Positions 1 through 63,081 of a stretch of DNA of 63,081 nucleotides are shown one piece after another. The notes beneath the pieces are model-generated. The model searched no databases, was not told where the DNA came from, and saw only the letters and a list, made by a program, of their open reading frames with translations. This stretch comes from a virus (Duplodnaviria; Caudoviricetes). A program made the position numbers and the translations under genes. The stretch's first letter is position 1. Every line of letters begins with the position of its first letter. The stretch lies in the IMG/VR virus record IMGVR_UViG_3300024187_000008, positions 1 through 63,081 of that record. One strand, written 5' to 3'.

Positions 1-126
1 GAGCGTCGTCGCCGACATCCTGTGGTGCGTGCTCAAGCCCGTTGCCGAGATGGCCCGCCGCTACGGTGGCCGCCTCGTGACCACGGTGCACGACTCGATC
101 CTCATCTGCGTCCCGGCGGCTGTCCG
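1..126. repeat. Terminal direct repeat (circular-assembly overlap), left copy
   Basis: 1-126 is identical to 62949-63074; the last 7 nt of the window match 129-135 after a 2-nt gap. The repeat lies inside the DNA polymerase CDS, implying a circular/permuted unit genome of 62948 bp. Confidence 0.95.
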
Positions 127-280
127 CGAAGCGGCGGCTCTGGAGATGCAGCAGATCATGCAGCAGAAGTTCCACTGCGTCCGCAAGAACTTCTACATCC
201 CGGTCACGCTGGAGTTGGGCAACCCCGGCCAGTCGTGGGGCGAGTTGTCGTCCTGGGAGCCGGTCGCGGAGGCCGCGTGA
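2..280 (+). CDS. polA: Family A DNA polymerase, C-terminal part (continues from 60760 across the circular join)
   Basis: In frame with the CDS at the window end; contains motif C TTVHDSILI and a C-terminal G.SWGE, stop TGA at 278-280. Confidence 0.92.
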   Translation, partial: SVVADILWCVLKPVAEMARRYGGRLVTTVHDSILICVPAAVREAAALEMQQIMQQKFHCVRKNFYIPVTLELGNPGQSWGELSSWEPVAEAA

Positions 281-324
281 AGATCGCATGGTGGGACATG
301 TTCCCCGAAGATAAGGAGATTCAG

Positions 325-12025: not shown

Positions 12026-12742
12026 TTATCTCCGGGTGAGTCCCGCACTGCGGGAGTTGGTGAGCGCCGTCATGAAGCGCGGGCGCTTGTAGCCGGTCTG
12101 GAACTCGTTGAGTGCAACGCCGGCCGCCGGCTGGAGGACGGGCTGCTGCACGAGCGCGGTGCCGGCCGGGCCGACCGTGGGGACGTTGGCCGAGGTGCTG
12201 ATGCCGGGCGTCGGGTTCGGCGCTGGACCTGCGGCGGGGAGCGTGGCGGCCGTCTGGCCCGCTGCGGCTCCGATGCGCTGCATCAGGTTCGTGTCGCCGT
12301 TCTGCTGCGCCTGCTGCATGAGCGCGGCCTGCATCCGTGCGGCGGCCATGTCGGCCGCGATCGGCATCGCCGACTGCGTGATGCCCGCGCGCGTCTGCCG
12401 TTCGAGCCCCGCCTGCGCGGCAGCACCCGAGGAGGTGGCGAAGTCGCTCGCGGCGGACTGTCCGCCCGTGTCGGGGCTGAGGCCCTCCGCTGCCGCCTTC
12501 GCGTTCATCTCGTTCTGGAACGTCTGGCCCTGCTCGGCCGCCTGCGCCATGAGTTGCTGGCCGTACGGCGAGTTGAGGATGTACTGCGCCAGTTCGGTCG
12601 TGTCCTTGCCCACGGCGTTGGGGCCGTAGAGTTGGCGGAGCGTCTCGGCATCCATGTACTTCTTCTTCTTGCCGAAGATGCCACCGAGGGCGCTGAGGCC
12701 CTGGAGGACGTACGGAACTGACTTGAGCAACAGGGGTGCCAT
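12026..12742 (-). CDS. Putative internal virion/pilot protein
   Basis: N-terminal hydrophobic GLSALGGIFG followed by KKKK, then Ala/Gln-rich; typical first ejection protein. Confidence 0.55.
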   Translation of the reverse strand: MAPLLLKSVPYVLQGLSALGGIFGKKKKYMDAETLRQLYGPNAVGKDTTELAQYILNSPYGQQLMAQAAEQGQTFQNEMNAKAAAEGLSPDTGGQSAASDFATSSGAAAQAGLERQTRAGITQSAMPIAADMAAARMQAALMQQAQQNGDTNLMQRIGAAAGQTAATLPAAGPAPNPTPGISTSANVPTVGPAGTALVQQPVLQPAAGVALNEFQTGYKRPRFMTALTNSRSAGLTRR

Positions 12743-33048: not shown

Positions 33049-33483
33049 TCATTTCTCAGGCGGGCGCTCGGCCAGTTCCGCGAGGGGTCGGTCGGGCAGT
33101 AGTGCTTCGGACTCGGCTATCTTCCGGTCGATGATCTTCGTCCACTTCGCGAGGCGCTGCGGACTCTTCTTGATGAAGTCCTGCATATAGTGCTCGAACG
33201 CGAGGATCATGACCTCTTCGAGCGTGGGATCGAACTTGCCCCAGATCAGTTCGGAGAAGACGACGTGGATCAGTTCATGGAGAACGGTGAGCCACGGATC
33301 GCCAGCGTTCGCGTCCACCTCGATCTTGATCCACCTCGGAGGGTAGAAGTCGTCGAAGTCGCACGAGCCGGCGGTGTCGTTACGTTTGGGGACCCGCTTG
33401 ATCGTCACCAGCGGGCGGTCCAGCAGGTTCAGCAGGTGCCGGTGCAGGCTCACCTTGCTCCACGGCTTGCGTGCTTTCGCCAT
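33049..33483 (-). CDS. Zincin-like (HExxH) protein
   Basis: TVLHELIH...LEE. Confidence 0.6.
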   Translation of the reverse strand: MAKARKPWSKVSLHRHLLNLLDRPLVTIKRVPKRNDTAGSCDFDDFYPPRWIKIEVDANAGDPWLTVLHELIHVVFSELIWGKFDPTLEEVMILAFEHYMQDFIKKSPQRLAKWTKIIDRKIAESEALLPDRPLAELAERPPEK

Positions 33484-34141
33484 CGGTCGGCCTCGTGAGG
33501 GCGATCAGCGCGTTGGCGAGGACGGTGAAGCCGAACGACTCGATCATGGCGGCGAGCGCGAGATCGAGGCCGACGGCCGTGTCCATGTCCTTGAGGCGCG
33601 CGATCGCGTCGGCTTGGGTCTTCGGCTTTCCTGGGCCGAGGTCCTTCTTCTTCGCCATGTCGCGCAGCTTGTTCCACATCTGGGACGCGCTCATGCGCGT
33701 GTCCGGGTGGAGGTCTGTGCGGAGCGCGAAGACGATGCACTGCTTGATGAGCATCCTCTGGACGAGTTCGTCGTCGCCAGAGTCCACGACGCCATCGACC
33801 ATGTTCGCCAGGGCGAGCATCGCCTCGTGGTCGAGGACGGTGCCCCCTCGGCTGGCTTTGGGGGCAGCGGCGGGCTTCTCGGGCTCCGGGTCCACCTCGC
33901 CGGCTTCTGCGGCGGCAACGTGCTCGGGCGGTGGGGCGTTCCGGGCGGCGGCGAGCTTGCCCTCGGCGATCAGTTCGCGGCGAGCGCGAGCTACCGTGTT
34001 GTCGGACAAGCCCGTAGCGAGGCAGATACGCGCCTTGCTCCACGTCTGGTGGTCGAGGATGAACTCCTTGGCCTGCCGGAGCTTCGCGCCCTGCATCGAG
34101 AGGTGTGCGCCAGGGGCGCCATCCTCAGCATCGTTTCGCAT
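33380..34141 (-). CDS. HTH protein, candidate terminase small subunit
   Basis: SKARICLATGLSDNTVARARREL helix-turn-helix; first gene of the leftward operon. Confidence 0.5.
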   Translation of the reverse strand: MRNDAEDGAPGAHLSMQGAKLRQAKEFILDHQTWSKARICLATGLSDNTVARARRELIAEGKLAAARNAPPPEHVAAAEAGEVDPEPEKPAAAPKASRGGTVLDHEAMLALANMVDGVVDSGDDELVQRMLIKQCIVFALRTDLHPDTRMSASQMWNKLRDMAKKKDLGPGKPKTQADAIARLKDMDTAVGLDLALAAMIESFGFTVLANALIALTRPTDGESTQAVEQGEPAPAPAEPAGPPAGDDQAGPQT

Positions 34142-34235
34142 AGCCCCCCGCTTTCTGGTATCCCGGCCCCTTCGCCCCCCTTTTCGACCCGCGTTTGGGG
34201 TCGTACCGGGTGGGCCTGCCCTGCTCGCGCCCTGC

Positions 34236-34251
34236 TGGCACGCACCTTGCT
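34236..34251 (+). promoter_or_regulatory. Sigma54-type -24/-12 element
   Basis: TGGCACGCACCTTGCT is a perfect TGGCACG-N4-TTGCW match. Confidence 0.55.
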
Positions 34252-34349
34252 AGCGCCCGCACGTCTCATGCCAACGTGCACCTCGCACGACGCCCAGGCG
34301 CGCATCGGTGGGCCACCTCCGGGCGGTTTCCACCCCGCGAGGGCGCCCC

Positions 34350-34369
34350 TCCAGACTCATCATACCACA
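34350..34369 (-). promoter_or_regulatory. Extended -10 promoter for the leftward (packaging/virion) arm, with conserved AGTCTGGA motif
   Basis: Minus strand TGTGGTATGATGAGTCTGGA; 18/20 identical to each of the sites at 42497 and 57458. Confidence 0.65.
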
Positions 34370-34467
34370 TCCCGCGCCAAGAACCGTGCCAAAGCGTGTC
34401 AATCCTTTGTCAAGAGGCGCCGCGCGGGCACACGTAACCCCTTGAACCGGGCCGAAGTGCGCGCAGG

Positions 34468-34485
34468 TGTCAAGGTACCTTGACA
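34468..34485. promoter_or_regulatory. Perfect 18-bp palindrome (operator/back-to-back TTGACA)
   Basis: TGTCAAGGTACCTTGACA. Confidence 0.6.
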
Positions 34486-34593
34486 GGCGGCACGGCGGCG
34501 CAACCGTGCGGTTTGCCCCACCTGCGAGGGCATTTCGCCCAGTTTGGCGCTCCCTCGGCTGGTCGCTCTGTTGCAGCACAACGAGTTAGCGGC

Positions 34594-34609
34594 TGGCACG
34601 GAGAGTGCA
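34594..34609 (+). promoter_or_regulatory. Sigma54-type -24/-12 element upstream of the early structured leader
   Basis: TGGCACGGAGAGTGCA (one mismatch); predicted start near 34620. Confidence 0.5.
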
Positions 34610-34963
34610 CTACCGTATCGCTGTCGTCGGCAGCGGCCGGCGACCCGAGGGTAGCGCCAAGAGCCCGAAGGGACCCGCAAGGTCCCCGTGGGACGGCAGA
34701 GCGGGCCTTCGACAGCAGGCAGCGGGTGGCGGGAGCCACCTGCGAGTCCAGAACGCCGATGAGGTGTCGCGCTGAACCCAACGCTGAGGTAGGCGCCCAT
34801 GACCGTAGCGGCCGGCTGGACCTGACAGAGTGCGAGGCTCAAGTAAACACGGCCGGAACCCGAAGCCCGGGGCGCACGAATAGCAGGTGGCAGAATCGAG
34901 CGGTGCGCTGGTGAAGCGCGGCCGGAGTCGATTCGGCCTGCACCGCCACCCCAAAGGGTGGCC

Positions 34964-35013
34964 CGGTCGCGTGCTGCACTAGCACGCCTGAAGAGCCCGC
35001 AAGGGCGAAACCG
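34964..35013 (+). ncRNA. Hammerhead ribozyme 1 (type III)
   Basis: CGG-TC (GUC site) / stem I GCGTGCT-GCACT-AGCACGC / CTGAAGA / stem II GCCC-GCAA-GGGC / GAAA / CCG. Confidence 0.9.
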
Positions 35014-35024
35014 AGGAGGACACG

Positions 35025-35174
35025 ATGCACAAGCCGAGCAAGTTCCAGAAGGTGCTGCGCGCCGAGAACCGTTTCTTCGCCGGCAAGACGAAGCGCGGCC
35101 GTGCGTGGCTCGCCAAGAAGGTCGCCAACCGCCTCGCGTGGTTCCGTGCGCACCCGAAGGCCCCGCTGATCTAG
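35025..35174 (+). CDS. Small basic early protein (49 aa), flanked by two hammerheads
   Basis: MHKPSKFQKVLRAENRFF...; RBS GAGGAGG; below the ORF-track size cutoff. Confidence 0.7.
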   Translation: MHKPSKFQKVLRAENRFFAGKTKRGRAWLAKKVANRLAWFRAHPKAPLI

Positions 35175-35176
35175 CA

Positions 35177-35297
35177 GGACGAAACGCCCAACGGTGCATC
35201 GGCCGATGTACCGGCCTGACGGAGCGAAAGCGGCTAGGCGCCGTGAGTAGTAGCCGGCAGGCGGGCGTAGCGCGGTCAAGCCGCGCCTGATGAGTCC
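35177..35297 (+). ncRNA. Hammerhead ribozyme 2 (type II, large stem III insert)
   Basis: GGAC-GAAA-CGCCC..(73 nt)..GGGCG-TA (GUA site)-GCGCGG-TCAAG-CCGCGC-CTGATGA-GTCC. Confidence 0.88.
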
Positions 35298-35315
35298 CAA
35301 GCTGAGGAGGTCCAG

Positions 35316-35504
35316 ATGCATGACGTGCGCTATGAGTCGCACGGTTCGCTGTGCCTGTTCCGGCTCCTGACCGACGCCGCCCGCAACTGGGTGGAGGAGA
35401 ATGTCAACGAGCCCAACTACTTCGGTGGCGCTCTCGTGTGCGAGCCACGCTACGCATACGACCTCGTCACCGGCATGAGGGAGGGCGGCCTTCGGGTCGC
35501 GTGA
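35316..35504 (+). CDS. Small early protein
   Basis: MHDVRYESHG...; RBS GAGGAGG. Confidence 0.7.
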   Translation: MHDVRYESHGSLCLFRLLTDAARNWVEENVNEPNYFGGALVCEPRYAYDLVTGMREGGLRVA

Positions 35505-35506
35505 CC

Positions 35507-35725
35507 ATGACACGCAAGGACTACGTTGTACTCGCCCGTGCTCTGAGCACGACGAAGCCCACCCGCGTTGGTCCCGCCGGCTACGCCTTCGCGAGGATTC
35601 GCGCGCAGTGGGTACACGACCTCATGGTCGTCTGTAACGCACTGGAGGCGGACAATCCCCGCTTCGAACGGAGGCGCTTTCTTCAGGCGGCCGGCTACTT
35701 CACGCAGGAGGCACCAACATGCTGA
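35507..35725 (+). CDS. Small conserved phage early protein (MTRKDY...DNPRF..RF..A type)
   Basis: Recognisable motif pattern; function unknown. Confidence 0.65.
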   Translation: MTRKDYVVLARALSTTKPTRVGPAGYAFARIRAQWVHDLMVVCNALEADNPRFERRRFLQAAGYFTQEAPTC

Positions 35726-36117
35726 CCACTGGGCAGTGTCAGGTCGCTGCATACCTGACGGACGGCGATGTCATCTGCACCGACTGCGCCGAACACCGCA
35801 TCAACTTCAACGAGGAGGACCGCTACGACGAACTCGTGGATGAGGAGCCGGGCGACGAGGCCCCCTCGTGGCACCGCGAGCGCGAACTGCGCAAGCAGGC
35901 CGAGGCAGAGCGGCGTGAGTGCGAGGAGGCCAAGGGCCTTCGCCCCCTGATCCAGTACGAACTGGACAGCGACGAGTGCTGGCAGGAGGACGGCTTGACC
36001 TGCGGCGACTGTGGTGCTATTCTCGTGGAGCCGTACGAGGACCCCGAGGCTGTACTGACCGACGAGGCCGAGGACATGGATGCGTGGCTCGCCGACGAGC
36101 AGAAGGAGAACCTGTGA
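35719..36117 (+). CDS. Acidic protein with split CxxC/CxxC zinc site
   Basis: ICTDC...TCGDCG; GGAGG RBS. Confidence 0.65.
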   Translation: MLTTGQCQVAAYLTDGDVICTDCAEHRINFNEEDRYDELVDEEPGDEAPSWHRERELRKQAEAERRECEEAKGLRPLIQYELDSDECWQEDGLTCGDCGAILVEPYEDPEAVLTDEAEDMDAWLADEQKENL

Positions 36118-36212
36118 ACCTGAACCCGCTTCAGATTGTCATCATCGTGGCAGCCCTCGCGTTCTTGGGCTTCGTCGCGATCATCACCCGGGACCTCCGG
36201 CGGAAGTACTAA
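36114..36212 (+). CDS. Small single-TM peptide
   Basis: GTG start after AAGGAG; NLNPLQIVIIVAALAFLGFVAII-RDLRRKY. Confidence 0.55.
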   Translation: MNLNPLQIVIIVAALAFLGFVAIITRDLRRKY

Positions 36213-36328
36213 GGTCGAAACGTGTGGGACAAGTCGCGGATGCGCTACAAACGGGATAGTCTGCACTGAGCGCCCGTAGTCACCCACGGCCCACACGTCG
36301 CACCGTCAAGCGGTGCCTGATGATGACC
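36213..36328 (+). ncRNA. Hammerhead ribozyme 3 (type II, large stem III insert)
   Basis: GGTC-GAAA-CGTGTGGG..(61 nt)..CCCACACG-TC (GUC site)-GCACCG-TCAAG-CGGTGC-CTGATGA-T-GACC. Confidence 0.88.
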
Positions 36329-36348
36329 CACTACACGGGAGGCACAAG

Positions 36349-36576
36349 ATGCATATCACCGAGCGGGCATGGACCCGCATCACGCCATGGGACGTGGCAA
36401 CGTCGCCCCTCACGGGTGACATCGTCCCGATCCTGTCGTTCCAGTCTCAGGAGGATGCAGCGCGTGCCGTGCGTGAGCACAACATGCTGCTGCCCACCTC
36501 CGCCTTCGGGCCGGCGTATCAGGGACCCTTCGGGCGCTACGACTTCCTCCAGCTTGACAAGGAGGACGAATCGTGA
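36349..36576 (+). CDS. Small early protein
   Basis: MHITERAW...; RBS GGGAGG. Confidence 0.65.
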   Translation: MHITERAWTRITPWDVATSPLTGDIVPILSFQSQEDAARAVREHNMLLPTSAFGPAYQGPFGRYDFLQLDKEDES

Positions 36577-37040
36577 AGGACATCCACGATCCCCTCGACG
36601 CTGCCGTGGTGCTCAAGGTGGCGGTGCACAAGCTGCCCGGTGGTGAGCGCGGCTGGTGGCGGTGTGACACCGACACGATCCACGTCAACCCCGCGTCACC
36701 TTACGCCCTGTGGTCCGTGGGACACGAGGTGGGGCACGCAACAGGTGCAGCGAACCGTCTGAACCGTCGCGCGATGCAGTTCTACTATCGCGAGATGAAC
36801 AAGACCATCTTCGCCTATCTGTTCCAGAAGTACCTCAACCGCACCTGCGTCCGCGCCGAGGAGGCCATCTGTGACCTCGTGGCGTACACCTTGACCGGCA
36901 AGACTCGTGTCGATGCCGTAGGCCACCGGAGTGGCTACGGGCAAGTCACCCCCGGCACCCGCACCGACCGGTACGTCCAGTACCACGCGCAGAAGGCCAT
37001 CGAGTATATCACCGCGCAGGTCCAGCAGGAGGCAGCGTGA
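36573..37040 (+). CDS. Zincin-like domain protein resembling the ArdC C-terminal (MPTase) domain
   Basis: HEVGHATG..NRLNR....EEAICDL. Confidence 0.65.
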   Translation: MKDIHDPLDAAVVLKVAVHKLPGGERGWWRCDTDTIHVNPASPYALWSVGHEVGHATGAANRLNRRAMQFYYREMNKTIFAYLFQKYLNRTCVRAEEAICDLVAYTLTGKTRVDAVGHRSGYGQVTPGTRTDRYVQYHAQKAIEYITAQVQQEAA

Positions 37041-39319
37041 ACAAGAAGCCCGTGCTCACCGTCATGCTGGTCGGCACCGACACCGACGTGCTCGCGCGTG
37101 GTATCAGCGAGGACGAGGACGTGTTCAAGCACCTCCACTTCAAGAGCGTCAACGAGGCCGGCCGCTACCTGTTCACCCGGTACGCACCCGTGTACCGCGT
37201 CATCCTCAACCTCGACCCGAGCGTCAGGAGATTCGCATGAAGACCCGCGTCATCACCATCACCGTCAACCTCCCCAACGACTTCCTCAAGATGCAGGACT
37301 GGGCCGGCACCATGGCGCAGCCCCTCGAACGTGTTGCGCAGCGTGCTGTCGATCAGTACGTCGGGCGACTCGAAGACCTCTACCGGGGCGAGAGCCCCCT
37401 TCTCGACAACAAGGAGGACTAACATGAGCCGACGCAAGGTTCGCGGCTTCGTCAAGCAGCCCGTCGAACGGGTGGTCATCAAGCCCGAGCGGCGGACCAC
37501 CGAGCGCAAGGTGGTGCTGAACCCGAGCACCAACGAGTACGAGGTGAAGTACATCGAGACGGTCACCCCTGCGGTCATCAAGCAGGGCAAGGCCGCCGGC
37601 CCGACCACGAAGGGCGGGAGCACCAACCACCAGCAGAAGGCCCCGAAGAAGGCCACTGCGACCACCGGAGGGAAGAAGTGAGCTACGAGAACGCGCAGCA
37701 CATCCCGTTGCGTGTCGAGGTGTCCGACCTCTGCAAGACCGAGGTTGCGGACCTGATCCACCGCTTCGGAAGCCCCATGATCCTGCAAGCGATGGCCGAC
37801 ACGTTCGAGCAGGACTTCATCGAGATCACCGAGAACGCGCACCGCAACATGTACCCGGCGAGCACGCCTCGCGCCTTCGCGCTCCAGCAGTCGCTTTTCT
37901 CTGCCGTCGCACGCCTCCTCGCACTGGGGGTGGGTGCATGACCAAGCGCACGAACGTCGTGTACCTCCGGTGGGATAGCTACTACTTCACCACCATGGAG
38001 GGTAAGCGGTGGGACGTGAGCCCGCTGCTCGAAGACCTGATAAGGGAACTCACGCGCGACAACACCCGCCCGTTCATCCGCGTCAGCACCGAAGAGAGCC
38101 CCGTCCACTACGGGACCACGATGGACCTCGTGGCCAAGCGCACATGGCCCGGGTTCGACGAGGAGGACCACATCTGCTTCTACGCCAAGCGACACCACCC
38201 GTGGTCCGTCGTAGCCACCATCTGTGAAGAGGCACTCGTCTACCTCTTCGGCCGTGTCCCCAAGCAACTCATCATCACCACATCGGAGACTCCGCATGAC
38301 CAAGAAGGTTCTGACTAAGAACGTCAAGCTGGTGGGCGGTCCCCTCGCAGGTCGTGAGGTGGCCGTCCCTCGCAGCGCCGAGACGTATCGCGTGGGTCGA
38401 GGCGTCGGCTTCTGGACCTACAACTTCGCCGGCCGTGAAGGCAGGCAGGAGTTGTTCGCCATCGTGCCGCCGTCACGCGCAGCGATGCGCCTCATCTGGT
38501 GGTACGTGGGCAAGCATGGGAAGGACCCGCGCGTCGAATCTGAGGCGTTGAAACGCACGCCTGTTCGTGGTACCATCGACCCTCGTGGGCGTGGTGCAGC
38601 GAAGCGGGCAGCGAGGAGAGCGGGCGCATGATGGAACTCTTCCGCCCCAAGCCCATGACCACGCTTCAGGTGGTCGGAGTGCAGAACCTCGTCGGACGCA
38701 AGCACGAGTGGGTGCGCGTCTTCGGCTACAAGGAGGGCGATCCCAACAAGAAGCTGTACGAGGTGGCGCTGAACTCGAAGGACGCTGTCGATCTGATCGA
38801 GGACGCCAACGCAACGAAGACGTTCCCGATGATCGAGGTCCCGAGCAACACAGTCGTCACCATCCTCAACACCTCCGACATCGAGGTCATCCACATGAGC
38901 GACCCGGACAGCGGGAGAATCTCGTGACCGAGAACAAGGACTACGTCAAGCGCCTGACCGACGGCTTCGCGCTCATGCACGCATCGGACGACACTCTTGG
39001 CGTTCAGCACCAGACGTTCAGTGGTGACAAGCTGAACCCGACCGACGACGCGACCGACAACTACCTCAGCCCCTTGCTCGACGCCGAGGTTCATGGTATC
39101 ATCCGCGAAACCGAAGAACTACGCCACCTGGGCAAGCTGAAGCCCTTCACCGAGGGAGAACCGATCGGCGCCTACCCGGGCAAGGCCAAGACCCGGAAGG
39201 TGACCACCACTGAGAACACGAAGTACCTGAACAGGCGCAAGGAGATCGAGCGTGAGATCATGCTCGAACGCCGGGCGCGCAACATCGCCACCATGAAGTC
39301 CATCAAGGAGACGCTATGA
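37037..39319 (+). other. Run of eight translationally coupled small hypothetical early genes (37037-37240, 37237-37422, 37424-37681, 37678-37941, 37938-38318, 38296-38631, 38628-38927, 38924-39319)
   Basis: Overlapping ATGA/GTGA junctions and GC3-rich frames; no recognisable motifs. Confidence 0.65.
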
Positions 39320-42382: not shown

Positions 42383-42389
42383 CAATCTA

Positions 42390-42444
42390 CCGGGTTCGAT
42401 TCCCGGCGGGCGTGGGGGCGCCCGAGGGCCGGCAGGTAGCCGGC
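42390..42444 (+). ncRNA. Second permuted tRNA-like element (T arm > closed acceptor stem > D-like arm)
   Basis: CCGGG-TTCGATT-CCCGG, then CGGGCGT-GGGG-GCGCCCG (7 bp), then a hairpin with an AGGTA loop; intergenic. Confidence 0.6.
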
Positions 42445-42478
42445 GAAGCGGGGTCGCTCCCCGTCCCCCATTTTTCCC

Positions 42479-42516
42479 TTGACCCACGCCTCGCCGGGTG
42501 GGATGATGAGTCTGGA
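42479..42516 (+). promoter_or_regulatory. Sigma70-type promoter with conserved AGTCTGGA motif
   Basis: TTGACC-N17-GATGAT-GAGTCTGGA. Confidence 0.6.
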
Positions 42517-46180: not shown

Positions 46181-46911
46181 ATGAAGTTCAAGCGCATCGA
46201 GTTCGACTGTATCAGGCAGCAGGTCATCCCCGGCGTCTGGTGGTGGGGACGCAACATCCACCTCGTCTACTCGGCCGCCCTGCTCCTCGACAAGATGATG
46301 ATCGGAGAGGGCCAGACCTTCACCGTTCACATCCCTGACGTCTTGGAGGAGGCCACGATCCATCGCACGGACGTGGACAGCACGTTCGCCTTCTACTCGG
46401 ACGGCACCGACAAGGTCGGCCTCTGCGTGTGGGAGTTGGTCCGCATCTTCCACTGCCTACCCTCGGCGCTGGTGATCGAGAAGTGACCCACATCAAGACG
46501 CACGAGGAGTTGCTCAACGAGTTGTACGAAGCGATCGCGGCGGACGCCAAGGAACTCGGGGTCTACCCCGAGTACAAGGACCTGACCGACCTCTTCTACA
46601 ACATGAAGACCACCCTCGACCTGTACCACGACGTGACCGCCACACTGCGGGGCAACCCGCCGAAGGAGAACACCATGATCCACCGTGTGCAGGGCGAAGT
46701 CGTCCTCAGAGCCACGAACAACCACGACGACGACATCGCCACGATTCGCCCGGCCAAGTTCGCGCCGGTCGAGTTCAACATCGACACCTCCACCCCCGGC
46801 GGCGCCACGATCCGTCTCCGCTTCTATCTGTACCAGCCCTCTTCGATGCGCCGGCTCGCCGAACTCTTCACCGAAGCCGCCGACGAGGCCGAGATCAGAG
46901 ACGCCCGATGA
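46181..46911 (+). other. Two hypothetical genes (46181-46486, 46483-46911)
   Basis: AAGGAG RBS, coupled junction. Confidence 0.6.
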
Positions 46912-47804
46912 GCGATCCGAACCGCGCTGCCGAGAAGGCGGCCAAGCAGGCGGCCAAGAAGGCCGCGTACGAGGCGCAGATCGCCGCCCTCCCTCCGTTC
47001 GTGGAGTGGCCGAAGATCGCGCGCCTCAACCGTGACATCGTCATCACCGAGAAGATCGACGGCACCAACGCCGCGATCGGTATCGTCGAGGACACCACGT
47101 ACGACGACTCGATCCCGGGTACCCGGATCGCGAGCACGAGCTACCGCGTGTACGCCCAGTCGCGCACCCGCATCATCACGATCGGCAACGACAACTTCGG
47201 CTTCGCCCAGTGGGTCGAGACGCACCGCGAGGCGCTCATCAAGGCGCTCGGTCCCGGCCTCCACTTCGGCGAGTGGTGGGGCGTCGGCATCGGTCGCCAC
47301 TACAACCTGAGCGAACGTCGCTTCTCGCTCTTCAACACGGCACGCTGGAGCCGGCCCGAAGGACAGGCCGCACTGGAGGTCGCACGCTCCGAGGGAGCAG
47401 CCATCTACGTGGTCCCGACCTTGTACGTCGGCCCATGGACTGGCGTCTTCGGGTACAAGGATGGCGACACGGGCGAGTGGCTCACGGCCCCGCAGAACTG
47501 GGACGTGTTCGACGCCGAGGCTGCGAAGCACAAGGCCATGCGTGACGAAATCTACCGGCGCGTGCGCGAGGTCGGCGATCAGGTCGAGGGTGACGAGATC
47601 ATCGAGCAACTCGACGCCGCGCTCCGCTTCAACCCTCGGCCGCGCTTCGCTCCGAACTTCATCATGGAGTGGCTCAAGCGGGTCGGGTCCCAGGCAGCGC
47701 CGGGCTTCATGCAGCCGGAAGGTATCGTCGTGTTTCACCGCGTCTCGGGCACCATCCTGAAGGCGACGGCCGAGCATGACGAAGTGCACAAGGGGGAGGT
47801 CTAA
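46908..47804 (+). CDS. ATP-dependent RNA ligase (Rnl2-like nucleotidyltransferase domain)
   Basis: Motif I TEKIDGTN, QSR, DNFGF, motif III FGEW.G.GI, IIIa F.LFN, VP.LY.G, motif IV PEGIVV, terminal K. Confidence 0.88.
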   Translation: MSDPNRAAEKAAKQAAKKAAYEAQIAALPPFVEWPKIARLNRDIVITEKIDGTNAAIGIVEDTTYDDSIPGTRIASTSYRVYAQSRTRIITIGNDNFGFAQWVETHREALIKALGPGLHFGEWWGVGIGRHYNLSERRFSLFNTARWSRPEGQAALEVARSEGAAIYVVPTLYVGPWTGVFGYKDGDTGEWLTAPQNWDVFDAEAAKHKAMRDEIYRRVREVGDQVEGDEIIEQLDAALRFNPRPRFAPNFIMEWLKRVGSQAAPGFMQPEGIVVFHRVSGTILKATAEHDEVHKGEV

Positions 47805-49134: not shown

Positions 49135-49422
49135 ATGTTGCAACCGAAGGGCGCCCGCGTGCTCGTGAAGCGCATCGAGCAGGCCAAGCCCGAGTCCGAA
49201 CTCATCATCATCCCCGACTCCGTCCAGCAGAAGTCGTCCGCCTTCGCGATGGTCTTCGCGATCGGGACGCTCAAGCAGGGTGGCATCGCCATCGGCGACA
49301 TCGTGGTCCTCATGGATTACGTCGGCGCCCCCGTCAACGTCACCCTTCCCGGCGACGAGTCGTGGACCGAGTGCCTCATCGTGAACGAGGACGAGGTGCT
49401 CGCCGTGGTGGAGGGCGCGTGA
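49135..49422 (+). CDS. groES: GroES-like co-chaperonin
   Basis: LQP.G.RVLVKR, mobile loop IIIPDS..K, V.AIG, GD.V, I.NE.EVLAVVE. Confidence 0.9.
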   Translation: MLQPKGARVLVKRIEQAKPESELIIIPDSVQQKSSAFAMVFAIGTLKQGGIAIGDIVVLMDYVGAPVNVTLPGDESWTECLIVNEDEVLAVVEGA

Positions 49423-49700
49423 ACATCACGATCCAGGACGGCATCGAGTACTGGGTGAACGACCGGGGCGTCATCCTCATCAGCAAGAACGCCAGCCTCC
49501 TCAAGGACGAGGTCCTCGGCAAGCTGCTCAAGACGGCGTTCGACCTGTATCCCACGATCGACGTGGCCGAGGTGGACGCCACCACCCTCGGCACACGGGG
49601 TGGCCTCAAGGTGACCTTCTCGGTCTACCTGGACACCGGTGCGATCGCTGCACTCCCGTCCATCTACGACGAGAAGCCGACCAAGCGAGGGAAGAAATGA
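49419..49700 (+). CDS. Hypothetical protein
   Basis: Coupled to groES. Confidence 0.6.
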   Translation: MNITIQDGIEYWVNDRGVILISKNASLLKDEVLGKLLKTAFDLYPTIDVAEVDATTLGTRGGLKVTFSVYLDTGAIAALPSIYDEKPTKRGKK

Positions 49701-50188
49701 AGACCGCGATCACGATCGGCACCTTCGACCTGCTGCACGTCGGGCATCTGAATCTGTTCCGCGCCTGCCGTCTGGTCGCCGATCAGGTGGTGGTGGGCGT
49801 CAACAGCGACGAGTTCGTCGAGAAGTTCAAGGGGCAGCGGCCTGTCATGGATGCGCTTGACCGCGAGTCGCTCGTGCGCGAACTGCGTACGGTCACGTCC
49901 GTCCATCTGCATGATGGCAACACGAGGGACTGGCTGATCCGTCGCAAGAAGTACCTCGACGGGCCGGTCATGCTCGTGGTCGGTTCCGACTGGGCGAAGA
50001 AGGACTACTATGCGCAGATCGGGGTGACGCGCGACGAACTCGCCGAGATGGGGATCACGATGATCTACGTGGACTACACGCCCGGCGTGAGCAGCACCAA
50101 CCTGCGGTTCGAGCGTCAGGCTCGCCTGATGAAGCGCATGTGGGACTGGATGATGAAGGCCGCCCACATCAGCGAGGAGGCACGGTGA
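49697..50188 (+). CDS. Cytidylyltransferase (TagD/RfaE-like, HxGH)
   Basis: GTFDLLHVGH, VGVNSD, KG, VGSDW, YTPGVSST. Confidence 0.92.
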   Translation: MKTAITIGTFDLLHVGHLNLFRACRLVADQVVVGVNSDEFVEKFKGQRPVMDALDRESLVRELRTVTSVHLHDGNTRDWLIRRKKYLDGPVMLVVGSDWAKKDYYAQIGVTRDELAEMGITMIYVDYTPGVSSTNLRFERQARLMKRMWDWMMKAAHISEEAR

Positions 50189-50904
50189 TAGTGACCAACG
50201 GCAAGCTCGCGATCCTGGTCCCGTCGAGGGGGCGCCCGCAGACGTTCCTCCGATTCTTGGAGTCGTTCTACAAGTGTATGACTCCCGGGTTCTCGGACGT
50301 GATCTTGCGGAACGGTCTCTCTGATCCGCTCCTCGCCGGCTACGAGGTGTTCGAGTCGCTCCCCAACGTGCACCGTGTGGTCGGCACCGACGAGGGCTTC
50401 AACTCGACCTGGGCCGGCACGGCCGGCTACTGCCCGGCACAGCAGGACCTCTACACCCGCTTTCCCGGCTACTCGGCGTACCTCTGCATCGAGGACGACA
50501 CGGTCCTCGCCTCGGTCGGCTTCGACCGCTGGCTGCTCGACGCCTTCGACGACTTCGAGGGGCGCAAGGGGATGGTGGAGCTACACGACCGGGCGCAGAC
50601 GATCCACGTCCAGTGCTTTAGCGCCGAGTGGTGCAAGGCACTGGGCTACCTGTGCAAGCCCGAGATCGGCGAGATCGCGTTCCTCTTCGCGCGCTACCTC
50701 GCCGGCAACAACCGTTTCAAGTCGGGCAAGGGCCACGCCGAGTACACCCACATCCCGCTCCTCCGCGCGACGGACACGGAGCGGCCGGGTGCCCTCATGC
50801 AGCCGAAGGTGACGAGCGAGTTCTACCGACAACTCGACGACTACAACAAGAACTGGCTGCCCGAGCACGGGCCGGCCGAGCGCATGAAGTTGGAGGTCAG
50901 GTGA
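50185..50904 (+). CDS. GT-A fold glycosyltransferase (GT2-like)
   Basis: AILVPSRGRP; DxD-like CIEDD. Confidence 0.7.
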   Translation: MIVTNGKLAILVPSRGRPQTFLRFLESFYKCMTPGFSDVILRNGLSDPLLAGYEVFESLPNVHRVVGTDEGFNSTWAGTAGYCPAQQDLYTRFPGYSAYLCIEDDTVLASVGFDRWLLDAFDDFEGRKGMVELHDRAQTIHVQCFSAEWCKALGYLCKPEIGEIAFLFARYLAGNNRFKSGKGHAEYTHIPLLRATDTERPGALMQPKVTSEFYRQLDDYNKNWLPEHGPAERMKLEVR

Positions 50905-51482
50905 AGATTCTACTCTATGGCAGCGCGTACCTGACCGAGTTGGTCGAGGCGCGTCTGCACGGTGAGGGGCACACGATCGTGGGACACATCCCTTGCCACA
51001 ACCCACGGTTCCCCGGCCAGATGCAGTCGCCCGTCGTCAACGAGGACACGCCCCACGACATCCGGCTCTCGGTCCTGTACGACCGGCTCATCAAGAAGAT
51101 CGACAACGGGTACAACATCCACCCGGGGCTGCTCCCTCGGTGGGCTGGCTGCGACATCCTGTACCACCTCGTGGCCGAGAACTCCAAGTACCAGGGCATC
51201 ACGTTCCACAAGCTGTCGGACAAGTTCGACCAGGGTGAGATTGTTCGCACCACGACGTGGACCATCCCGCGCGTGTCGATCGTCGGCCTCTTCGGCCAAC
51301 TCTGCTGGCGGCTCCCCGAGTTCGCGGCGGACTGTATCAACGAGATGGCGATGGGCGAGATGGAGCCCGTCTACTACCACCGTGGTCTGATCGACCGCAA
51401 GGAACTCTTCGAGAAGGGTGGCCGCGACATCGCCTCCTACATCGAGGCCGACCGTGCTGCCCGGAAAGGATACGCCTCGTGA
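50901..51482 (+). CDS. N10-formyl-THF-dependent formyltransferase (sugar N-formyltransferase-like)
   Basis: YNIHPGLLP.W.G, GITFH......FDQGEI. Confidence 0.85.
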   Translation: MKILLYGSAYLTELVEARLHGEGHTIVGHIPCHNPRFPGQMQSPVVNEDTPHDIRLSVLYDRLIKKIDNGYNIHPGLLPRWAGCDILYHLVAENSKYQGITFHKLSDKFDQGEIVRTTTWTIPRVSIVGLFGQLCWRLPEFAADCINEMAMGEMEPVYYHRGLIDRKELFEKGGRDIASYIEADRAARKGYAS

Positions 51483-52582
51483 ACTTCAACCTCGACCCGT
51501 GTGAGGACTCGCTGCCCGAGATACAGGAGGCGATCCAGCACGTCATCCGCAACCGCCAGTTCATCCTCGGCCCCCACGTCAGCAGGTTCGAGCGCGACTG
51601 GGCCGAGTACAACCAGATGCCCTACTGCATCGGGGTTGGTAACGGGACCGACGCGATTCGCATAGCGTTGCTCGCGCTCGGCGTAAAGCCCGGCGACGAA
51701 GTCATCTCGCCCGCGCACAACGTCGCGTATACGGCGCTCGCCGTCGCCTCGATCGGGGCCAAGAACGTCTACGTGGACGTGGACCCGAACACGATGCTGA
51801 TGGACCTCGACGATACGGCGCGGGCCATCACCGACCGCACCCGCGTCATCCTGCCCGTGCACCTCTACGGCCAGATGGTGGACATGGAGCGGTTCGCCCA
51901 ACTCGCGCGCGGCACCGGCGTACTCCTCGTGGAGGACGCGGCCCAGGCGCACGGCTCCACCTTCAAAGGCTGCGGCCCGGGCTGGTGGTCCGACGCGGCC
52001 TGCTTCTCCCACTACCCGACCAAGAACCTCGGGGCCTGGGGCGAGGCCGGCAGCATCGTCACCCGCAGCCCGATCGTGAACGAGCGCGCCCGCCTGCTAC
52101 GTGATGGTGGACGCACCGACCGCTACGTGCACACGCTCCCGGGGATCAACTCGTGCCTCGACGAGATGCAGGCGGCGATCCTCACGGTCAAGCTGCCGTG
52201 GTTGGCGAAGATGAACGCGCAGCGCCGGAGCCTCGCACTCCGCTACCGTGAGGCACTCGCGTACTGCCCGATCCAGTTCCAGCACACCGGGGCCTACGAC
52301 TACGAGGTGGACCACCTGTTCGTGGTTCGCCTGTACAGCCCACACGCGAGGGAGCCCCTCATGGAGAACCTGTCATACAAGGGTATCCCGTCGCTGATCC
52401 ACTACCCGCTCATTCTCCCGCACCAGCCGTTTGCAGTAGCGGACGCGCTCGGACAGGGGCCGTGGCCTATCTCTGAGCGCATCGCAAACTCCTGCCTGTC
52501 GCTCCCGCTCTACCCGGGGATGCCAACTGAGGAGCAGGACGCGGTGATCGCGGCCGTGAAGGAGTTCTTCGGTGTCACCTAA
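51479..52582 (+). CDS. DegT/DnrJ/EryC1/StrS PLP-dependent sugar aminotransferase
   Basis: GVGNGTDA, PVHLYGQ, EDAAQAHG, S.YPTKNLG..GEAG, GINS.LDE.QAA, LSLPLYP. Confidence 0.95.
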   Translation: MNFNLDPCEDSLPEIQEAIQHVIRNRQFILGPHVSRFERDWAEYNQMPYCIGVGNGTDAIRIALLALGVKPGDEVISPAHNVAYTALAVASIGAKNVYVDVDPNTMLMDLDDTARAITDRTRVILPVHLYGQMVDMERFAQLARGTGVLLVEDAAQAHGSTFKGCGPGWWSDAACFSHYPTKNLGAWGEAGSIVTRSPIVNERARLLRDGGRTDRYVHTLPGINSCLDEMQAAILTVKLPWLAKMNAQRRSLALRYREALAYCPIQFQHTGAYDYEVDHLFVVRLYSPHAREPLMENLSYKGIPSLIHYPLILPHQPFAVADALGQGPWPISERIANSCLSLPLYPGMPTEEQDAVIAAVKEFFGVT

Positions 52583-53156
52583 GATCACGATCATAGTGCC
52601 GACGTTCGGTCGGTCTACCCTCGCTCGTGTCATCGGGGAGATCAAGCCCCAGATGCAGGAGGGGGACCAGATGATCGTGGCCTGGGACGGCGTGCCCCCA
52701 CCGTACACACGCGCGAGCGTGGAGAGGACCGGCGTCGAGTTGGTCACGCTCCCCGAACGGGTCGGCGACTACGGCTGCACCCCGAACGACGAGGCGACCA
52801 AGCACGCGACCGGCGACTACATCTGGTACATCGGCGACGATGACCGGTATCCGCCGACCTCGCTCGACCTGATCCGGCTGCTCGTGCAGGAGGACCCGGA
52901 GGCGGTGCACGTCTTCTCGATGCTGCATACGGGGCGCGTGCTCGGCCAGCGGGTCGAGGCGTGTGCGGTCAGCAGTCAGCAGATCGTGGTACCACGTCGG
53001 GACGACATGCCGAAGTGGAAGGACTTCCCGCCGGGGCAGGAGCTACTCTCCGACTGGCACTGGATCGACCGCTGCGTCAAGCACGTCGGCCGGTACCGGA
53101 CGCACGACGACATCATCTGCATCCTCGACCACCAGAACTTCGGGAAGTTCGTATGA
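52572..53156 (+). CDS. GT2-family glycosyltransferase
   Basis: ITIIVPT.GR, A.GDYIWYIGDDD. Confidence 0.85.
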   Translation: MSPKITIIVPTFGRSTLARVIGEIKPQMQEGDQMIVAWDGVPPPYTRASVERTGVELVTLPERVGDYGCTPNDEATKHATGDYIWYIGDDDRYPPTSLDLIRLLVQEDPEAVHVFSMLHTGRVLGQRVEACAVSSQQIVVPRRDDMPKWKDFPPGQELLSDWHWIDRCVKHVGRYRTHDDIICILDHQNFGKFV

Positions 53157-60759: not shown

Positions 60760-63081
60760 ATGATGGGAAAAGCTAGGGGCCGCGCCGATGCTCCGTATCT
60801 GTTCGTGATGGTCAGCGAACCGAGCGAGGGCATGGAGGCGTGGTTCTGGCGTGCTCTGCAAGGCGCCGGCATCAAGAAGACCGAGTGCAGGCTCGTGTTC
60901 ATGATCGACGAGCCGCCGGCCAACGAAGGGAACAAGGCGTCCAAGGCGCAGTTGCGCTCTGCACGCGCGCGGTTCGAGCAGGACGTACGGCGTTCCTCAC
61001 CGCAGGTGGTGCTCCCGATGGGCACCGAACCCTTCTACGCCCTCACCGGCATCAACGAGGGTATCTTCGACGCGCGCGGCTACCTGATACGGAAGCACCT
61101 GTTCCACCCGGTTCCGATCGAGGTGTGGAAGCAGGTCGGCACGTACGTCAACGCGAGCAAGGCTACGGGCGCCAAGAAGGGCGACCCGAAGATGAAGTGG
61201 GTGAAGGAATCGGGGCCGGCGCTTCTGGGCGCTGACTTCGCCGGGACCGTGATCCCAGTCTTCACCCTCGACCACATCCGCACCGAGCAGTTCGCCGTGA
61301 AGCCGGCGTTCAAGGAGGACCTGCTCCGTGCCGTGCGCGCCCACATGGGCACGACGGTCGAGATCGACAAGGACTTCGCGCTCATCACCACCCTCGAAGA
61401 GGTCCCGCCACTCAGCGAGTGGGGACCGATCGTCGCGGTTGACATCGAGACGCACGGGATCGACAACGAGGTGATCGACCTCGTATCCTTCTCGGACGGC
61501 GTCTTCACCGCAGCCCTCGACTGGACCGAGGGAGCACGGCTCTGGATGGAGGCGCTCTTCGCCAGCCCGCGCACGTTCGCTGTTCACAACTCGCCGTTCG
61601 ACATCCCTCGGCTAGTCGCCAACGGGGTGAACATCACGCAGCAGGTGATCGACACGCGCGTGTTCGACACCATGTTCGGTGCCGTCGTCGTGCAGCCCGA
61701 CCTCCACAAGGCGCTCGGGCGCGTGGCCTCGCTCTACCTGGACATGGCGCCGTGGAAGACCTCGTCGCGCAAGCCGAACTCACACTGGCGGGCGATGGTG
61801 CTCGCGGACCCGCGCCGGTACGCCGGCAAGGACGCGCTCGCCACGAAGTGGATCGCCGACTCCCTCATTTCGATCATGAAGTCCCTCGGCTGTTGGGACC
61901 TCTACATGGGGCAGGGCAAGCACCCGGGGCCGGGCGTCATGGCGACGATCCCCGAGCTTACGGCGATGAGTCGTGGCGGCATCCGCACGAACCGCGAGTA
62001 CGCACGCAGGATGTGCGCGCGGCTGGAGACGCGCCTGTTCCGGTACTTGGCGCTCTGGACGCGGATGTTCCCGAACGTGACGCCCTCGTCGAACCCGCAG
62101 GTCAACAAGCTGCTCTACAAGCAGTGGGGCCTGCCGGTCAACCGCTCGAAGAGCGACGGGGTGAGCGCGGACGAACTGGCGCTCGTGAAGTCGAAGGCGT
62201 TTGTCGAGGTCAACAAGGACACCGACTTCCACCCGGGCGCATGGCGTACGGATCAGCGCGCCACGCCCCGGACCTTCGACCTGCTACTGAAGATTCGCAA
62301 GACGAGCAAGATGCTCGGGACCTACGTGCAGCCCGTGATGTTGGGCGAGGACACCTGGGTGCACCCGAGCTACCTGCCGGCCTCGAAGGACGATGAGCGC
62401 GGCGGTCAGAAGATGGACAACAAGGGCAACACGGCCACGGGCCGGCTCGCTGCGTACCACCCGAACATCCAGAACCAGATGAAGGATGTGATCGGTGGCT
62501 ACAGCGTGAAGCACCTCTACGTGCCGGACGACGACACGATGTGCTTCATCCAGGCCGACTACAAGAGCGCCGAGTTGTTCGTGCTCGCCGGGATGGCGGG
62601 CGACAAGAAGCTGCTCGCTGACCTCCTGTCCGGCGACATGCACGGGCGCAACGCGGTGCGGTTCGGGATCAGCCGTAAGGTCGTGAAGAACGTGACCTAC
62701 GCCTCGATGTACCTCGCGAGCCCGGGCAAGCAGTCCGAGATGATCTTGGAGCAGGAGCATATGTACGTGTCCCCGGCTGACTGCCTGACTACGTCGGAGT
62801 CGATCTGGGGCTACTACGAGAAGACCAATGCGTACCGGCAGTTGCTCGTGTCGATGTGCGAGGCGCAGAAGTACATCACCAACCCGTTCGGCCGCACCCG
62901 CTTCTTCCACGACGGGCGCGCTCCTGCGGCGGTGGACTTCATCCCTCAGAGCGTCGTCGCCGACATCCTGTGGTGCGTGCTCAAGCCCGTTGCCGAGATG
63001 GCCCGCCGCTACGGTGGCCGCCTCGTGACCACGGTGCACGACTCGATCCTCATCTGCGTCCCGGCGGCTGTCCGAAGCGGC
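60760..63081 (+). CDS. polA: Family A DNA polymerase with N-terminal UDG-like domain and 3'-5' exonuclease (continues at 2-280; ~822 aa in total)
   Basis: Translated by hand (absent from the ORF track because it has no stop in the window): PQVVLPMG..F.ALTG..GIFDARG (UDG-like), VDIETHG/HNSPFD/YAGKD (Exo I-III), TATGRL..PNIQN, motif A ADYKSAEL, motif B R...KNVTYA..Y, NPFGRTR. Confidence 0.92.
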   Translation, partial: MMGKARGRADAPYLFVMVSEPSEGMEAWFWRALQGAGIKKTECRLVFMIDEPPANEGNKASKAQLRSARARFEQDVRRSSPQVVLPMGTEPFYALTGINEGIFDARGYLIRKHLFHPVPIEVWKQVGTYVNASKATGAKKGDPKMKWVKESGPALLGADFAGTVIPVFTLDHIRTEQFAVKPAFKEDLLRAVRAHMGTTVEIDKDFALITTLEEVPPLSEWGPIVAVDIETHGIDNEVIDLVSFSDGVFTAALDWTEGARLWMEALFASPRTFAVHNSPFDIPRLVANGVNITQQVIDTRVFDTMFGAVVVQPDLHKALGRVASLYLDMAPWKTSSRKPNSHWRAMVLADPRRYAGKDALATKWIADSLISIMKSLGCWDLYMGQGKHPGPGVMATIPELTAMSRGGIRTNREYARRMCARLETRLFRYLALWTRMFPNVTPSSNPQVNKLLYKQWGLPVNRSKSDGVSADELALVKSKAFVEVNKDTDFHPGAWRTDQRATPRTFDLLLKIRKTSKMLGTYVQPVMLGEDTWVHPSYLPASKDDERGGQKMDNKGNTATGRLAAYHPNIQNQMKDVIGGYSVKHLYVPDDDTMCFIQADYKSAELFVLAGMAGDKKLLADLLSGDMHGRNAVRFGISRKVVKNVTYASMYLASPGKQSEMILEQEHMYVSPADCLTTSESIWGYYEKTNAYRQLLVSMCEAQKYITNPFGRTRFFHDGRAPAAVDFIPQSVVADILWCVLKPVAEMARRYGGRLVTTVHDSILICVPAAVRSG
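62949..63081. repeat. Terminal direct repeat (circular-assembly overlap), right copy
   Basis: Copy of 1-135 with a 2-nt deletion near the end. Confidence 0.95.

Follow-up and report, generated by a model that had tools for sequence, protein, structure and literature searches.

What do three hammerhead ribozymes, crowded into 1.4 kb at the head of the rightward genes of a soil phage, do to the transcript that carries them? The question is raised by the IMG/VR virus record IMGVR_UViG_3300024187_000008, a whole record of 63,081 bases (~65% G+C, estimated 98% complete) which was analysed at its full length and is called the window below. An earlier note on this DNA had described the array as a candidate new system, in which tandem hammerheads cut the early phage transcript into gene cassettes and either insulate them or yield circular coding RNAs; the ribozyme calls, the cut sites and the cassette layout of that interpretation stand, while the label of novelty does not and the circular RNAs find no support in the sequence. 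The hammerhead set is real and well supported, with cleavage predicted from sequence, and the reading that we prefer, with a probability of roughly 0.6, is that these are active ribozymes which process the early transcript into defined, hairpin-ended units. The three elements are the following.

34964-35013, plus strand: hammerhead 1 (HH1), type III, found by descriptor and minimum-free-energy (MFE) fold; predicted cut after C34968; the 3' strand of its stem III abuts the Shine-Dalgarno (SD) sequence.
35177-35297, plus strand: HH2, type II hammerhead, found by descriptor, MFE fold and the covariance model R1 described below; predicted cut after A35269 (GUA).
36213-36328, plus strand: HH3, type II hammerhead, found by descriptor, MFE fold and model R1; predicted cut after C36299 (GUC).

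HH1, a minimal type III hammerhead, is built from a stem III of CGGU/ACCG, a stem I of 6-8 bp, the core stretch CUGAAGA and a 4-bp stem II with a GCAA loop, following which comes GAAA. HH2 begins with the first strand of an open stem II (GGAC/GUCC); next come GAAA, stem III as a hairpin of 86 nt, a stem I of 7 bp and CUGAUGA. In HH3 stem II reads GGUC/GACC, the stem III hairpin past GAAA measures 80 nt, and A9 is separated from G10.1 by one additional U. Both stem III hairpins are unusually long. With stem II open and stems I and III loop-closed, HH2 and HH3 have the topology that defines type II. Apart from the extra U of HH3, the conserved core (C3 U4 G5 A6 N7 G8 A9, G12 A13 A14, A15.1-U16.1 and an N-U-H cut site) is exact in all three, the predicted cut triplets being GUC, GUA and GUC, and the descriptor gives lengths for stems I/II/III of 8/4/4 bp in HH1, 7/4/6 bp in HH2 and 7/4/9 bp in HH3. 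Folded alone, each of the three elements adopts a three-way junction with its core unpaired in the MFE structure (folding z-scores of -1.88, -3.45 and -1.75 for HH1, HH2 and HH3).

The descriptor (CUGANGA, GAAA and UH; stems of at least 4/3/3 bp; hairpin spans of up to 130 nt; any of the three circular permutations) matched the whole genome exactly three times on the plus strand, at HH1-HH3, and never on the minus strand, and this outcome was unchanged when one core mismatch was permitted or when spans were extended to 450 nt. Across 2332 dinucleotide shuffles the mean was 0.154 loose matches per genome, and stems of at least 7/4/4 bp were present in 1 of the ~360 shuffle matches, as judged by eye. 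Sequence, descriptor and folds agree with the earlier note on three hammerhead cores that are intergenic and on the coding strand, and the same holds for the predicted cuts after 34968, 35269 and 36299, whose cut-to-cut distances would release fragments of 301 nt and 1030 nt.

Relatives of the two type II elements were retrieved from three public collections by a pattern made from the stem I and core that HH2 and HH3 share, and the loci so found are given L numbers. The pattern returned 21 loci; at 17 of these the descriptor found a complete type II hammerhead, and one more, L019, falls short of this by one mismatch in stem II. Three others match the pattern and are not hammerheads, namely L005 and L011, which share one sequence, and L026, the one locus that the scan of the genome-contig collection yielded. 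The DNA flanking the retrieved loci holds further copies, bringing the total to 38 distinct type II hammerheads from outside the window, among them arrays of 8 copies in 2.8 kb (L008, 3639-6472, plus strand), 11 copies in 5.9 kb (L022, 5630-11571, minus strand) and 3 copies in 0.75 kb (L013, 707-1452, minus strand), in which nearly every small open reading frame (ORF) is punctuated by a type II hammerhead. The extra U after A9 seen in HH3 recurs in L007, L020, L021 and 10 of the 11 copies of L022, and is therefore a natural variant and not a defect.

The 38 outside sequences, without the window's own copies, were aligned (alignment A1). In A1 94.4% of the cells assigned to pairs are paired, the shuffled value being 65.8%, and both-side changes affect 165 cells where shuffles give 47.3; none of 500 shuffles reaches either value, although these pairing statistics are partly circular, the array members having been chosen by a descriptor that demands pairing. 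Both-side changes occur in 12 of the 17 pairs, with a covariation score of 0.676 (0.147 in shuffles), and the covariation is strong in stems I and III. Model R1, the covariance model built from the 38 sequences of A1, matches HH3 with 54.1 bits (E-value 1.6e-14) and HH2 with 54.0 bits (E-value 1.7e-14), in both cases at full length and with the long stem III taken as an insertion, while the next-best match in the genome scores 14.8 bits. It has to be noted that these scores, too, are partly circular, because the retrieval pattern came from the stem I and core of HH2 and HH3; the 5' half of both elements, comprising the stem II strand, GAAA, stem III and the cut site, lay outside that pattern.

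For HH1 the evidence comes from relatives of the phage. A query with the capsid protein recovered 62 related IMG/VR loci with identities of up to 90%, and 11 related records (numbered with a G, as are the other related IMG/VR records) were fetched whole. An HH1-like type III hammerhead is present in 6 of these 11 (G002, G003, G004, G007, G024 and G010) and in three further loci reached through the leader, namely G047, G014 (the same as G002) and G045 (the same as G003). With the region of G024 being that of G007, this leaves 7 distinct sequences including the window's, across which stems I and III show compensatory differences. Stem II is throughout a helix of 4 bp whose loop has four bases, the last of them A (a GNRA loop in 4 of the sequences), and the size of loop I varies from 3 nt up to an extension of 122 nt. 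In G002, G003, G004 and G007/G024 the ribozyme is preceded by a long region devoid of codon-biased ORFs and lies downstream of a divergent helix-turn-helix (HTH) gene, and in all 7 distinct sequences the SD and start codon of the next ORF follow 11-30 nt past it. The succession of types is also found again: G004 has the order III-II-II of the window and G007 the order III-II, with long stem III inserts (81-131 nt total length), a layout that the earlier note had proposed to look for in related contigs. In G008, G009 and G011 only weak, chance-like matches were found, and the contig of G005 breaks off within the region. What the analysis shows is therefore the motif, the fold, a frequency above chance, an assignment to the family through an independent model, and conserved, covarying stems.

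The position of the ribozymes with respect to the genes is equally regular, and the ORFs concerned are these.

35025-35174, plus strand: gpA, a 49-aa ORF with the SD GAGGAGG at 35013-35019 and a third-position G+C fraction (GC3) of 0.94; no family match.
35316-35504, plus strand: gpB, small ORF of the 1030-nt unit; no confident family.
35507-35725, plus strand: gpC, small ORF of the 1030-nt unit; no confident family.
35719-36117, plus strand: gpD, small ORF of the 1030-nt unit; no confident family.
36114-36212, plus strand: gpE, small ORF of the 1030-nt unit; no confident family.
36349-36576, plus strand: gpF, the first ORF past HH3, with the SD GGGAGG at 36337-36342.
36573-37040, plus strand: gpG, with weak matches to an anti-restriction PHROG (5.5e-5) and to a zincin-like MPTase-PolyVal domain (ArdC-like).

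With three intergenic copies on the coding strand within 1.4 kb of phage DNA, the locus is a case of clustered phage hammerheads. HH2 starts 2 nt past the stop codon ending at 35174 and HH3 directly (0 nt) past the one ending at 36212, and all three ribozymes are followed by a strong SD (GAGGAGG, GAGGAGG and GGGAGG) and by ORFs starting with ATGCAC, ATGCAT and ATGCAT, all of which reads in the sequence as the earlier note had it. The coincidence of Met-His starts to which that note drew attention is real in the window, where the three post-ribozyme ORFs (35025, 35316 and 36349) are the only ones among 50 rightward genes to start with ATG-CAY, but it is not general, as just 1 of 38 ORFs past the outside type II hammerheads has such a start; in the strain contigs of the run labelled X3, gpA apparently starts Met-Ser-His. 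The spacing is of wider validity. An ORF stop lies within -2 to +7 nt of the first base in 34 of the 38 outside hammerheads, an SD and a start codon lie no more than 40 nt past the last base in 36, and both hold in 32, so that the order stop-ribozyme-SD-ATG is the norm for this type II subfamily. The flanked genes themselves are not constant, a tblastn match in the 11 related records being obtained for only 2 of the 8 ORFs gpA to gpH.

Upstream of HH1, the features that bear on how the transcript would start are as follows.

33380-34141, minus strand: HTH gene, divergent to the early operon.
34236-34251, plus strand: candidate sigma-54-type promoter motif 1 (TGGCAC-N6-TGC), from a pattern search.
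34594-34609, plus strand: candidate sigma-54-type promoter motif 2, from a pattern search; ~360 nt before the HH1 cut, at a conserved position.
34610-34963, plus strand: ORF-free structured leader, detachable by HH1, as judged from the lack of a codon-biased ORF and the fold z-score.
12726-12741, minus strand: third TGGCAY-N6-TGCW match, from the same kind of search.

No coding-type ORF occurs in the 883 bases that separate the leftward HTH gene from gpA. The form TGGCAY-N6-TGCW, which we take to be the -24/-12 promoter form of sigma-54, occurs 3 times in the window where 0.49 matches would be expected. Motif 2 aligns in the window, G047, G007, G003, G004 and G002, at distances of 292-517 nt ahead of the cut by the type III ribozyme, and plus-strand motifs of this type number from 1 to 6 in each of 5 related leaders, with six in G007. 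Profile searches of the phage genome found neither a sigma-54 activator domain nor a sigma-54 DNA-binding domain, and a simple scan together with a regular-expression search found no sigma-70 promoter in 34100-35030. It would be out of the ordinary for a phage to have its early operon driven by sigma-54, and the motifs hint that the host is not an actinobacterium. The stretch 34500-34968 folds with a z-score of -3.62 on the plus strand (none of 100 shuffles as good) and of -1.67 on the minus strand. It includes a conserved block at 34653-34704, part of which is a hairpin capped by GCAA; G002 and G014 share this block at 92-95% identity, and it can still be made out in G047 and G004. No Rfam match was obtained here, and this may be a structured RNA that is released by HH1.

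Other signals in the leader may concern its regulation. A perfect 18-bp palindrome at 34468-34485 carries TTGACA on both strands, and further TGTCAA repeats (also at 34398-34416) lie ~100-200 nt upstream of motif 2; next to the divergent HTH gene, the palindrome and the repeats are candidate operator or activator sites. A 22-nt motif at 34543-34564 is single in this genome and has second copies, at 95% identity, in G002, G014, G004, G027, G016 and G036.

From this arrangement we infer that the ribozymes would cleave in vivo, downstream of a putative promoter and with possible effects on stability or insulation. In the proposed course of events, the rightward early transcript probably starts at the motif at 34236 or at that at 34594, which would give it a leader of ~350 to 700 nt. 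HH1 would then cut 57 nt before the first start codon and detach this leader, so that the mRNA would receive one fixed 5' end whichever promoter had fired. HH2 and HH3, each between a stop codon and the next SD, would cut the remaining transcript into units of gpA, gpB to gpE, and gpF onward. Cleavage by a hammerhead leaves a 5'-OH and a 2',3'-cyclic phosphate, and since HH2 and HH3 are of type II, both new ends would be closed hairpins: the upstream product would end in the long closed stem III hairpin plus one nucleotide with the 2',3'-cyclic phosphate, and the downstream product, with its 5'-OH and no unpaired nucleotide, would start at the first paired base of the stem I hairpin. Termini closed in this way would uncouple neighbouring cistrons and alter decay and translation. 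With regard to RNases that depend on the 5' end and to 3' exonucleases, hairpin-closed ends would probably favour protection, and the long stem III hairpins could serve as 3' end caps. Insulation of the kind provided by RiboJ, a synthetic insulator with a type III hammerhead between promoter and ribosome-binding site, is plausible above all for HH1, which likewise lies between candidate promoters and an SD and most of which would stay on the message as a structured 5'-OH end. It differs from RiboJ in being natural, and its insulating effect is putative.

Several points weigh against processing by active ribozymes, in addition to the partial circularity of the statistics given above. No Rfam hammerhead family was found above its gathering cut-off, be it in a gathering scan of the whole window, in E-value scans or in single-family searches. 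RF00008 (Hammerhead_3) reached 11.2 bits against a cut-off of 48.5 and RF02275 13.4 bits against a cut-off of 52, and RF02276 (Hammerhead_II, cut-off 37) gave no match at HH2 or HH3. The scan with Rfam hammerhead models, which the earlier note had put forward as a check, therefore had no model reaching its cut-off at HH1-HH3, and by Rfam's own criterion the elements are not members of its families. However, this negative result carries little weight, because a control, the compact canonical 56-nt type II hammerhead at 2162-2217 of L003, was also missed, with no RF02276 match and only a partial RF00008 match of 17 bits. The Rfam type II model, as run, misses an abundant metagenomic type II subfamily, which has in common with RF02276 and RF00008 the core nucleotides, the three-helix junction and the circular permutations. 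What sets the subfamily apart is a stem I of 7 bp with a closing G-U pair, a loop of 3 nt, an open stem II of 4 bp and, in many cases, an additional U behind A9.

Tertiary contacts are a further point on that side. Most type II hammerheads are reported, in the main text of Perreault et al. (2011, PLoS Comput Biol, PMC3088659), with a pseudoknot between loop I and the 3' tail. In HH2 and HH3 no such pseudoknot of at least 4 bp is visible by eye, a formal test not having been made, and activity at cellular Mg2+ is therefore unproven. Unmasking of the SD by cleavage is likewise unsupported, as folding gave no clear change in accessibility (mean unpaired probability of the SD before and after the cut of 0.56 and 0.63 for HH1, 0.42 and 0.47 for HH2, and 0.26 and 0.29 for HH3). 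Finally, not every member of the lineage carries the ribozymes. The relative G006, which is 99% complete, lacks hammerheads, and R1 matched 4 related records out of 25; among the 7 of these with a completeness of 90% or more, it matched 2. The ribozymes are for that reason dispensable, and they keep their position where they are present.

Among the alternatives, the one that survives best also takes the ribozymes to be active, and proposes that they shorten or time the early messages, cleavage exposing entry sites for host RNases, as with glmS, and shutting off the early genes, with neither protection nor insulation. The precedent is that the 5'-OH end left by glmS leads to decay in Firmicutes, and the flanked genes here are hypervariable early ORFans (witness the tblastn matches for 2 of 8) whose dosage may need limiting. 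The structure of the products speaks otherwise, as both new ends would be closed hairpins without a single-stranded overhang, which by established knowledge of RNases favours protection, and a strong SD stands directly past each ribozyme. We regard this alternative as unlikely.

Also unlikely, and next in standing, is the idea that the hammerheads have little effect on fitness, being selfish or near-neutral passengers, or else DNA linkers by which cassettes are exchanged through recombination. It draws on the patchy presence of the ribozymes among close relatives and on the variation of the genes between hammerheads from phage to phage while the punctuation stays, as seen with tblastn here and described also in the text of Perreault et al. 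(PMC3088659). It draws further on strain variation at this very locus: the X3 contigs are ~96% identical to the window across gpA-gpF, yet in HH2 the stem III interior (35186-35266) has 81 nt replaced by 67 other letters, and in HH3 the corresponding interior (36225-36293) has 69 nt replaced by 14 letters, the flanking core being aligned in both cases. These swaps also fit a ribozyme with a freely variable distal stem III, and they show that the inserts turn over fast. What passengers would hardly be expected to show is a catalytic core preserved in each copy, stems that covary without decay, a tight fit between stop and SD (32 of the 38 outside cases) and a position of HH1 that is constant across divergent relatives.

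A more far-reaching proposal, which we consider a long shot, is that type II punctuation is a general phage device which, in arrays whose ribozymes share one stem II, would let a hairpin-ended unit rebuild a hammerhead around its nick and so allow reversible ligation and circular or reshuffled mRNAs. Here the device would be joined to a conserved type III ribozyme that gives the early message a uniform 5' end, whichever of one to several sigma-54-type promoters it came from, and that releases a conserved structured leader RNA with its own function.

Very improbable is the specific version of this for the window, as contained in the earlier note, in which the excised units are ligated into circular coding RNAs, either by reversal of the hammerhead reaction or by a ligase acting on the 5'-OH and 2',3'-cyclic phosphate ends. 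Such ends are the substrates of RtcB-type ligases, and in other arrays stem II is identical between ribozymes (8 of 8 in L008, 3 of 3 in L013 and 8 of 11 in L022) with stems I and III differing, so that the ends of an excised unit could come together again as an entire hammerhead; the descriptor did call composites of this sort, which enclose a complete small ORF, in L008 and L016. In the window, by contrast, the 3' end of the 301-nt unit pairs with only 2 positions of the stem III strand of HH1, and the chimeric 4-bp stem II of the 1030-nt unit (GUCC with GGUC) has a U-U mismatch, so neither unit has ends that rebuild a complete ribozyme or helix in the manner of viroid-like or retrozyme-type units. 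The enzymes fit no better. The genome does encode the RNA ligase that the note had named, as a PF09414 domain:

46908-47804: RNA ligase (PF09414), from a profile match; no sequence match in the PDB.

A ligase of the PF09414 type, however, needs 5'-P and 3'-OH ends by established knowledge, a profile search found no RtcB in the phage genome, and the HAD phosphatase that the note had also listed was not found with four HAD models (HAD_2, PNK3P, Hydrolase and NT5C), other HAD families not having been tried. On these grounds the sequence lends no support to circular coding RNAs, and circular or spliced products were considered and sought for such arrangements by Perreault et al., whose text reports none detected (PMC3088659).

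That the three elements are chance motif matches without cleavage, to which the unmet Rfam cut-offs and the modest folding z-scores of HH1 (-1.88) and HH3 (-1.75) could be taken to point, is the least probable reading in view of the shuffle statistics, the E-values of ~1e-14 from the independent model and the homologues with compensatory changes.

The setting of the locus is that of a tailed phage from soil: the record is present in soil metagenome runs, and protein family matches in the window include an SU10-like major capsid protein and portal, a family A DNA polymerase and a lysozyme. Genes run leftward from ~4 to 34 kb and rightward from 35 kb onward, and the record is a circular permutation of the genome, as one reading frame leaves its end and resumes at its start:

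60760-63081 joined to 1-1218, plus strand: DNA polymerase A ORF, crossing the record ends.

No relatives of 34400-37100 or 34142-34964 were found in a collection of cultured phages with blastn in its distant mode, nor of gpD among phages with tblastn, and the AAA_25 protein has only ~24% identity to cultured phages, namely mycobacteriophages. Queries with gpD, gpG and the AAA_25 protein in viral contigs, and with gpD in metagenome contigs, recovered no relative. Farther along the rightward genes, a tRNA T-arm-like fragment was seen at 42388-42412 (plus strand), and a terminator-like GC hairpin with a U run, followed by a sigma-70 promoter-like TTGACC-17-GATGAT, at 42451-42510 (plus strand) before the gene at 42528. 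An R1 match at 42441-42513 (14.5 bits) was rejected as a ribozyme, being this hairpin and promoter-like site. The two signals may close this operon, and early transcription probably gives way to middle transcription here. At 49135-49422 there is a Cpn10-like co-chaperonin, and at 49697-53156 (plus strand) a DegT-type aminotransferase is clustered with a cytidylyltransferase-like protein and part of a glycosyltransferase, a group that may make a sugar modification.

The array belongs to a known kind, because its layout and both of the ideas attached to it, processing and circular RNA, are already described for clustered prophage hammerheads in the 2011 text of Perreault et al. (PMC3088659), and the label of a candidate new system has for this reason to be given up. 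According to that text, multiple hammerheads flank single genes or short gene blocks in prophages, long phage transcripts were proposed to be processed into operon- or gene-length mRNAs, and triple arrangements cleave in vitro and, for the one of A. tumefaciens, in E. coli. The window's array resembles these prophage clusters in its mixed types, its location on the coding strand, its single genes or short blocks between ribozymes and the lack of constancy of the flanked genes. The A. tumefaciens triple arrangement flanks an anti-restriction gene (PMC3088659), ardA, and the weakly ArdC-like gpG lies just downstream of the window's array. The window's array differs from the prophage clusters in that the host lineage is uncultured, and in the strain-variable 80-86-nt stem III hairpins of HH2 and HH3. 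The main text of PMC3088659 contains neither the term "stop codon" nor "Shine-Dalgarno" (0 occurrences), and its figures or supplements may show the spacing of stop and SD or the U-insert variant.

For HH1, the closest precedent is the hammerhead of the haloarchaeal viruses HF1/HF2. According to the same text (PMC3088659), 13 nt separate it from the first early ORF, and the 5' end mapped for the transcript falls within 3 nt of its cut; like HH1, it is placed a few nt before the first ORF of an early polycistronic transcript. In HF1/HF2 the host is archaeal and the ribozyme is a core variant that depends on salt, whereas the core of HH1 is canonical and sigma-54-type motifs occur in the leader before it. 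Hammerheads in short intergenic untranslated regions are also described for fungal and plant RNA viruses, where the cut falls a few nt before the next start codon (passages of PMC13725137); these are eukaryotic, of type I and tied to translation initiation, whereas the phage has an ordinary SD.

The role of phage and bacterial hammerheads is still termed elusive in passages of a 2019 review and of a 2026 paper, and literature searches found no paper that settles it. The locus leaves this unchanged, and what it does provide is a compact test case, with one type III and two type II hammerheads in 1.4 kb. It comes with natural relatives that have three (G004), two (G007), one (G002 and G003) or no (G006) ribozymes at the same place, and with strains in which the stem III inserts are swapped. 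Alignment A1 could in addition seed a new Rfam-type model for the subfamily that is currently not captured. For the biology of such phages, the tight spacing of stop, ribozyme and SD, which holds in 32 of the 38 outside cases, together with hairpins at both of the new ends, leads to testable predictions on how the ends of the processed mRNAs would be protected.

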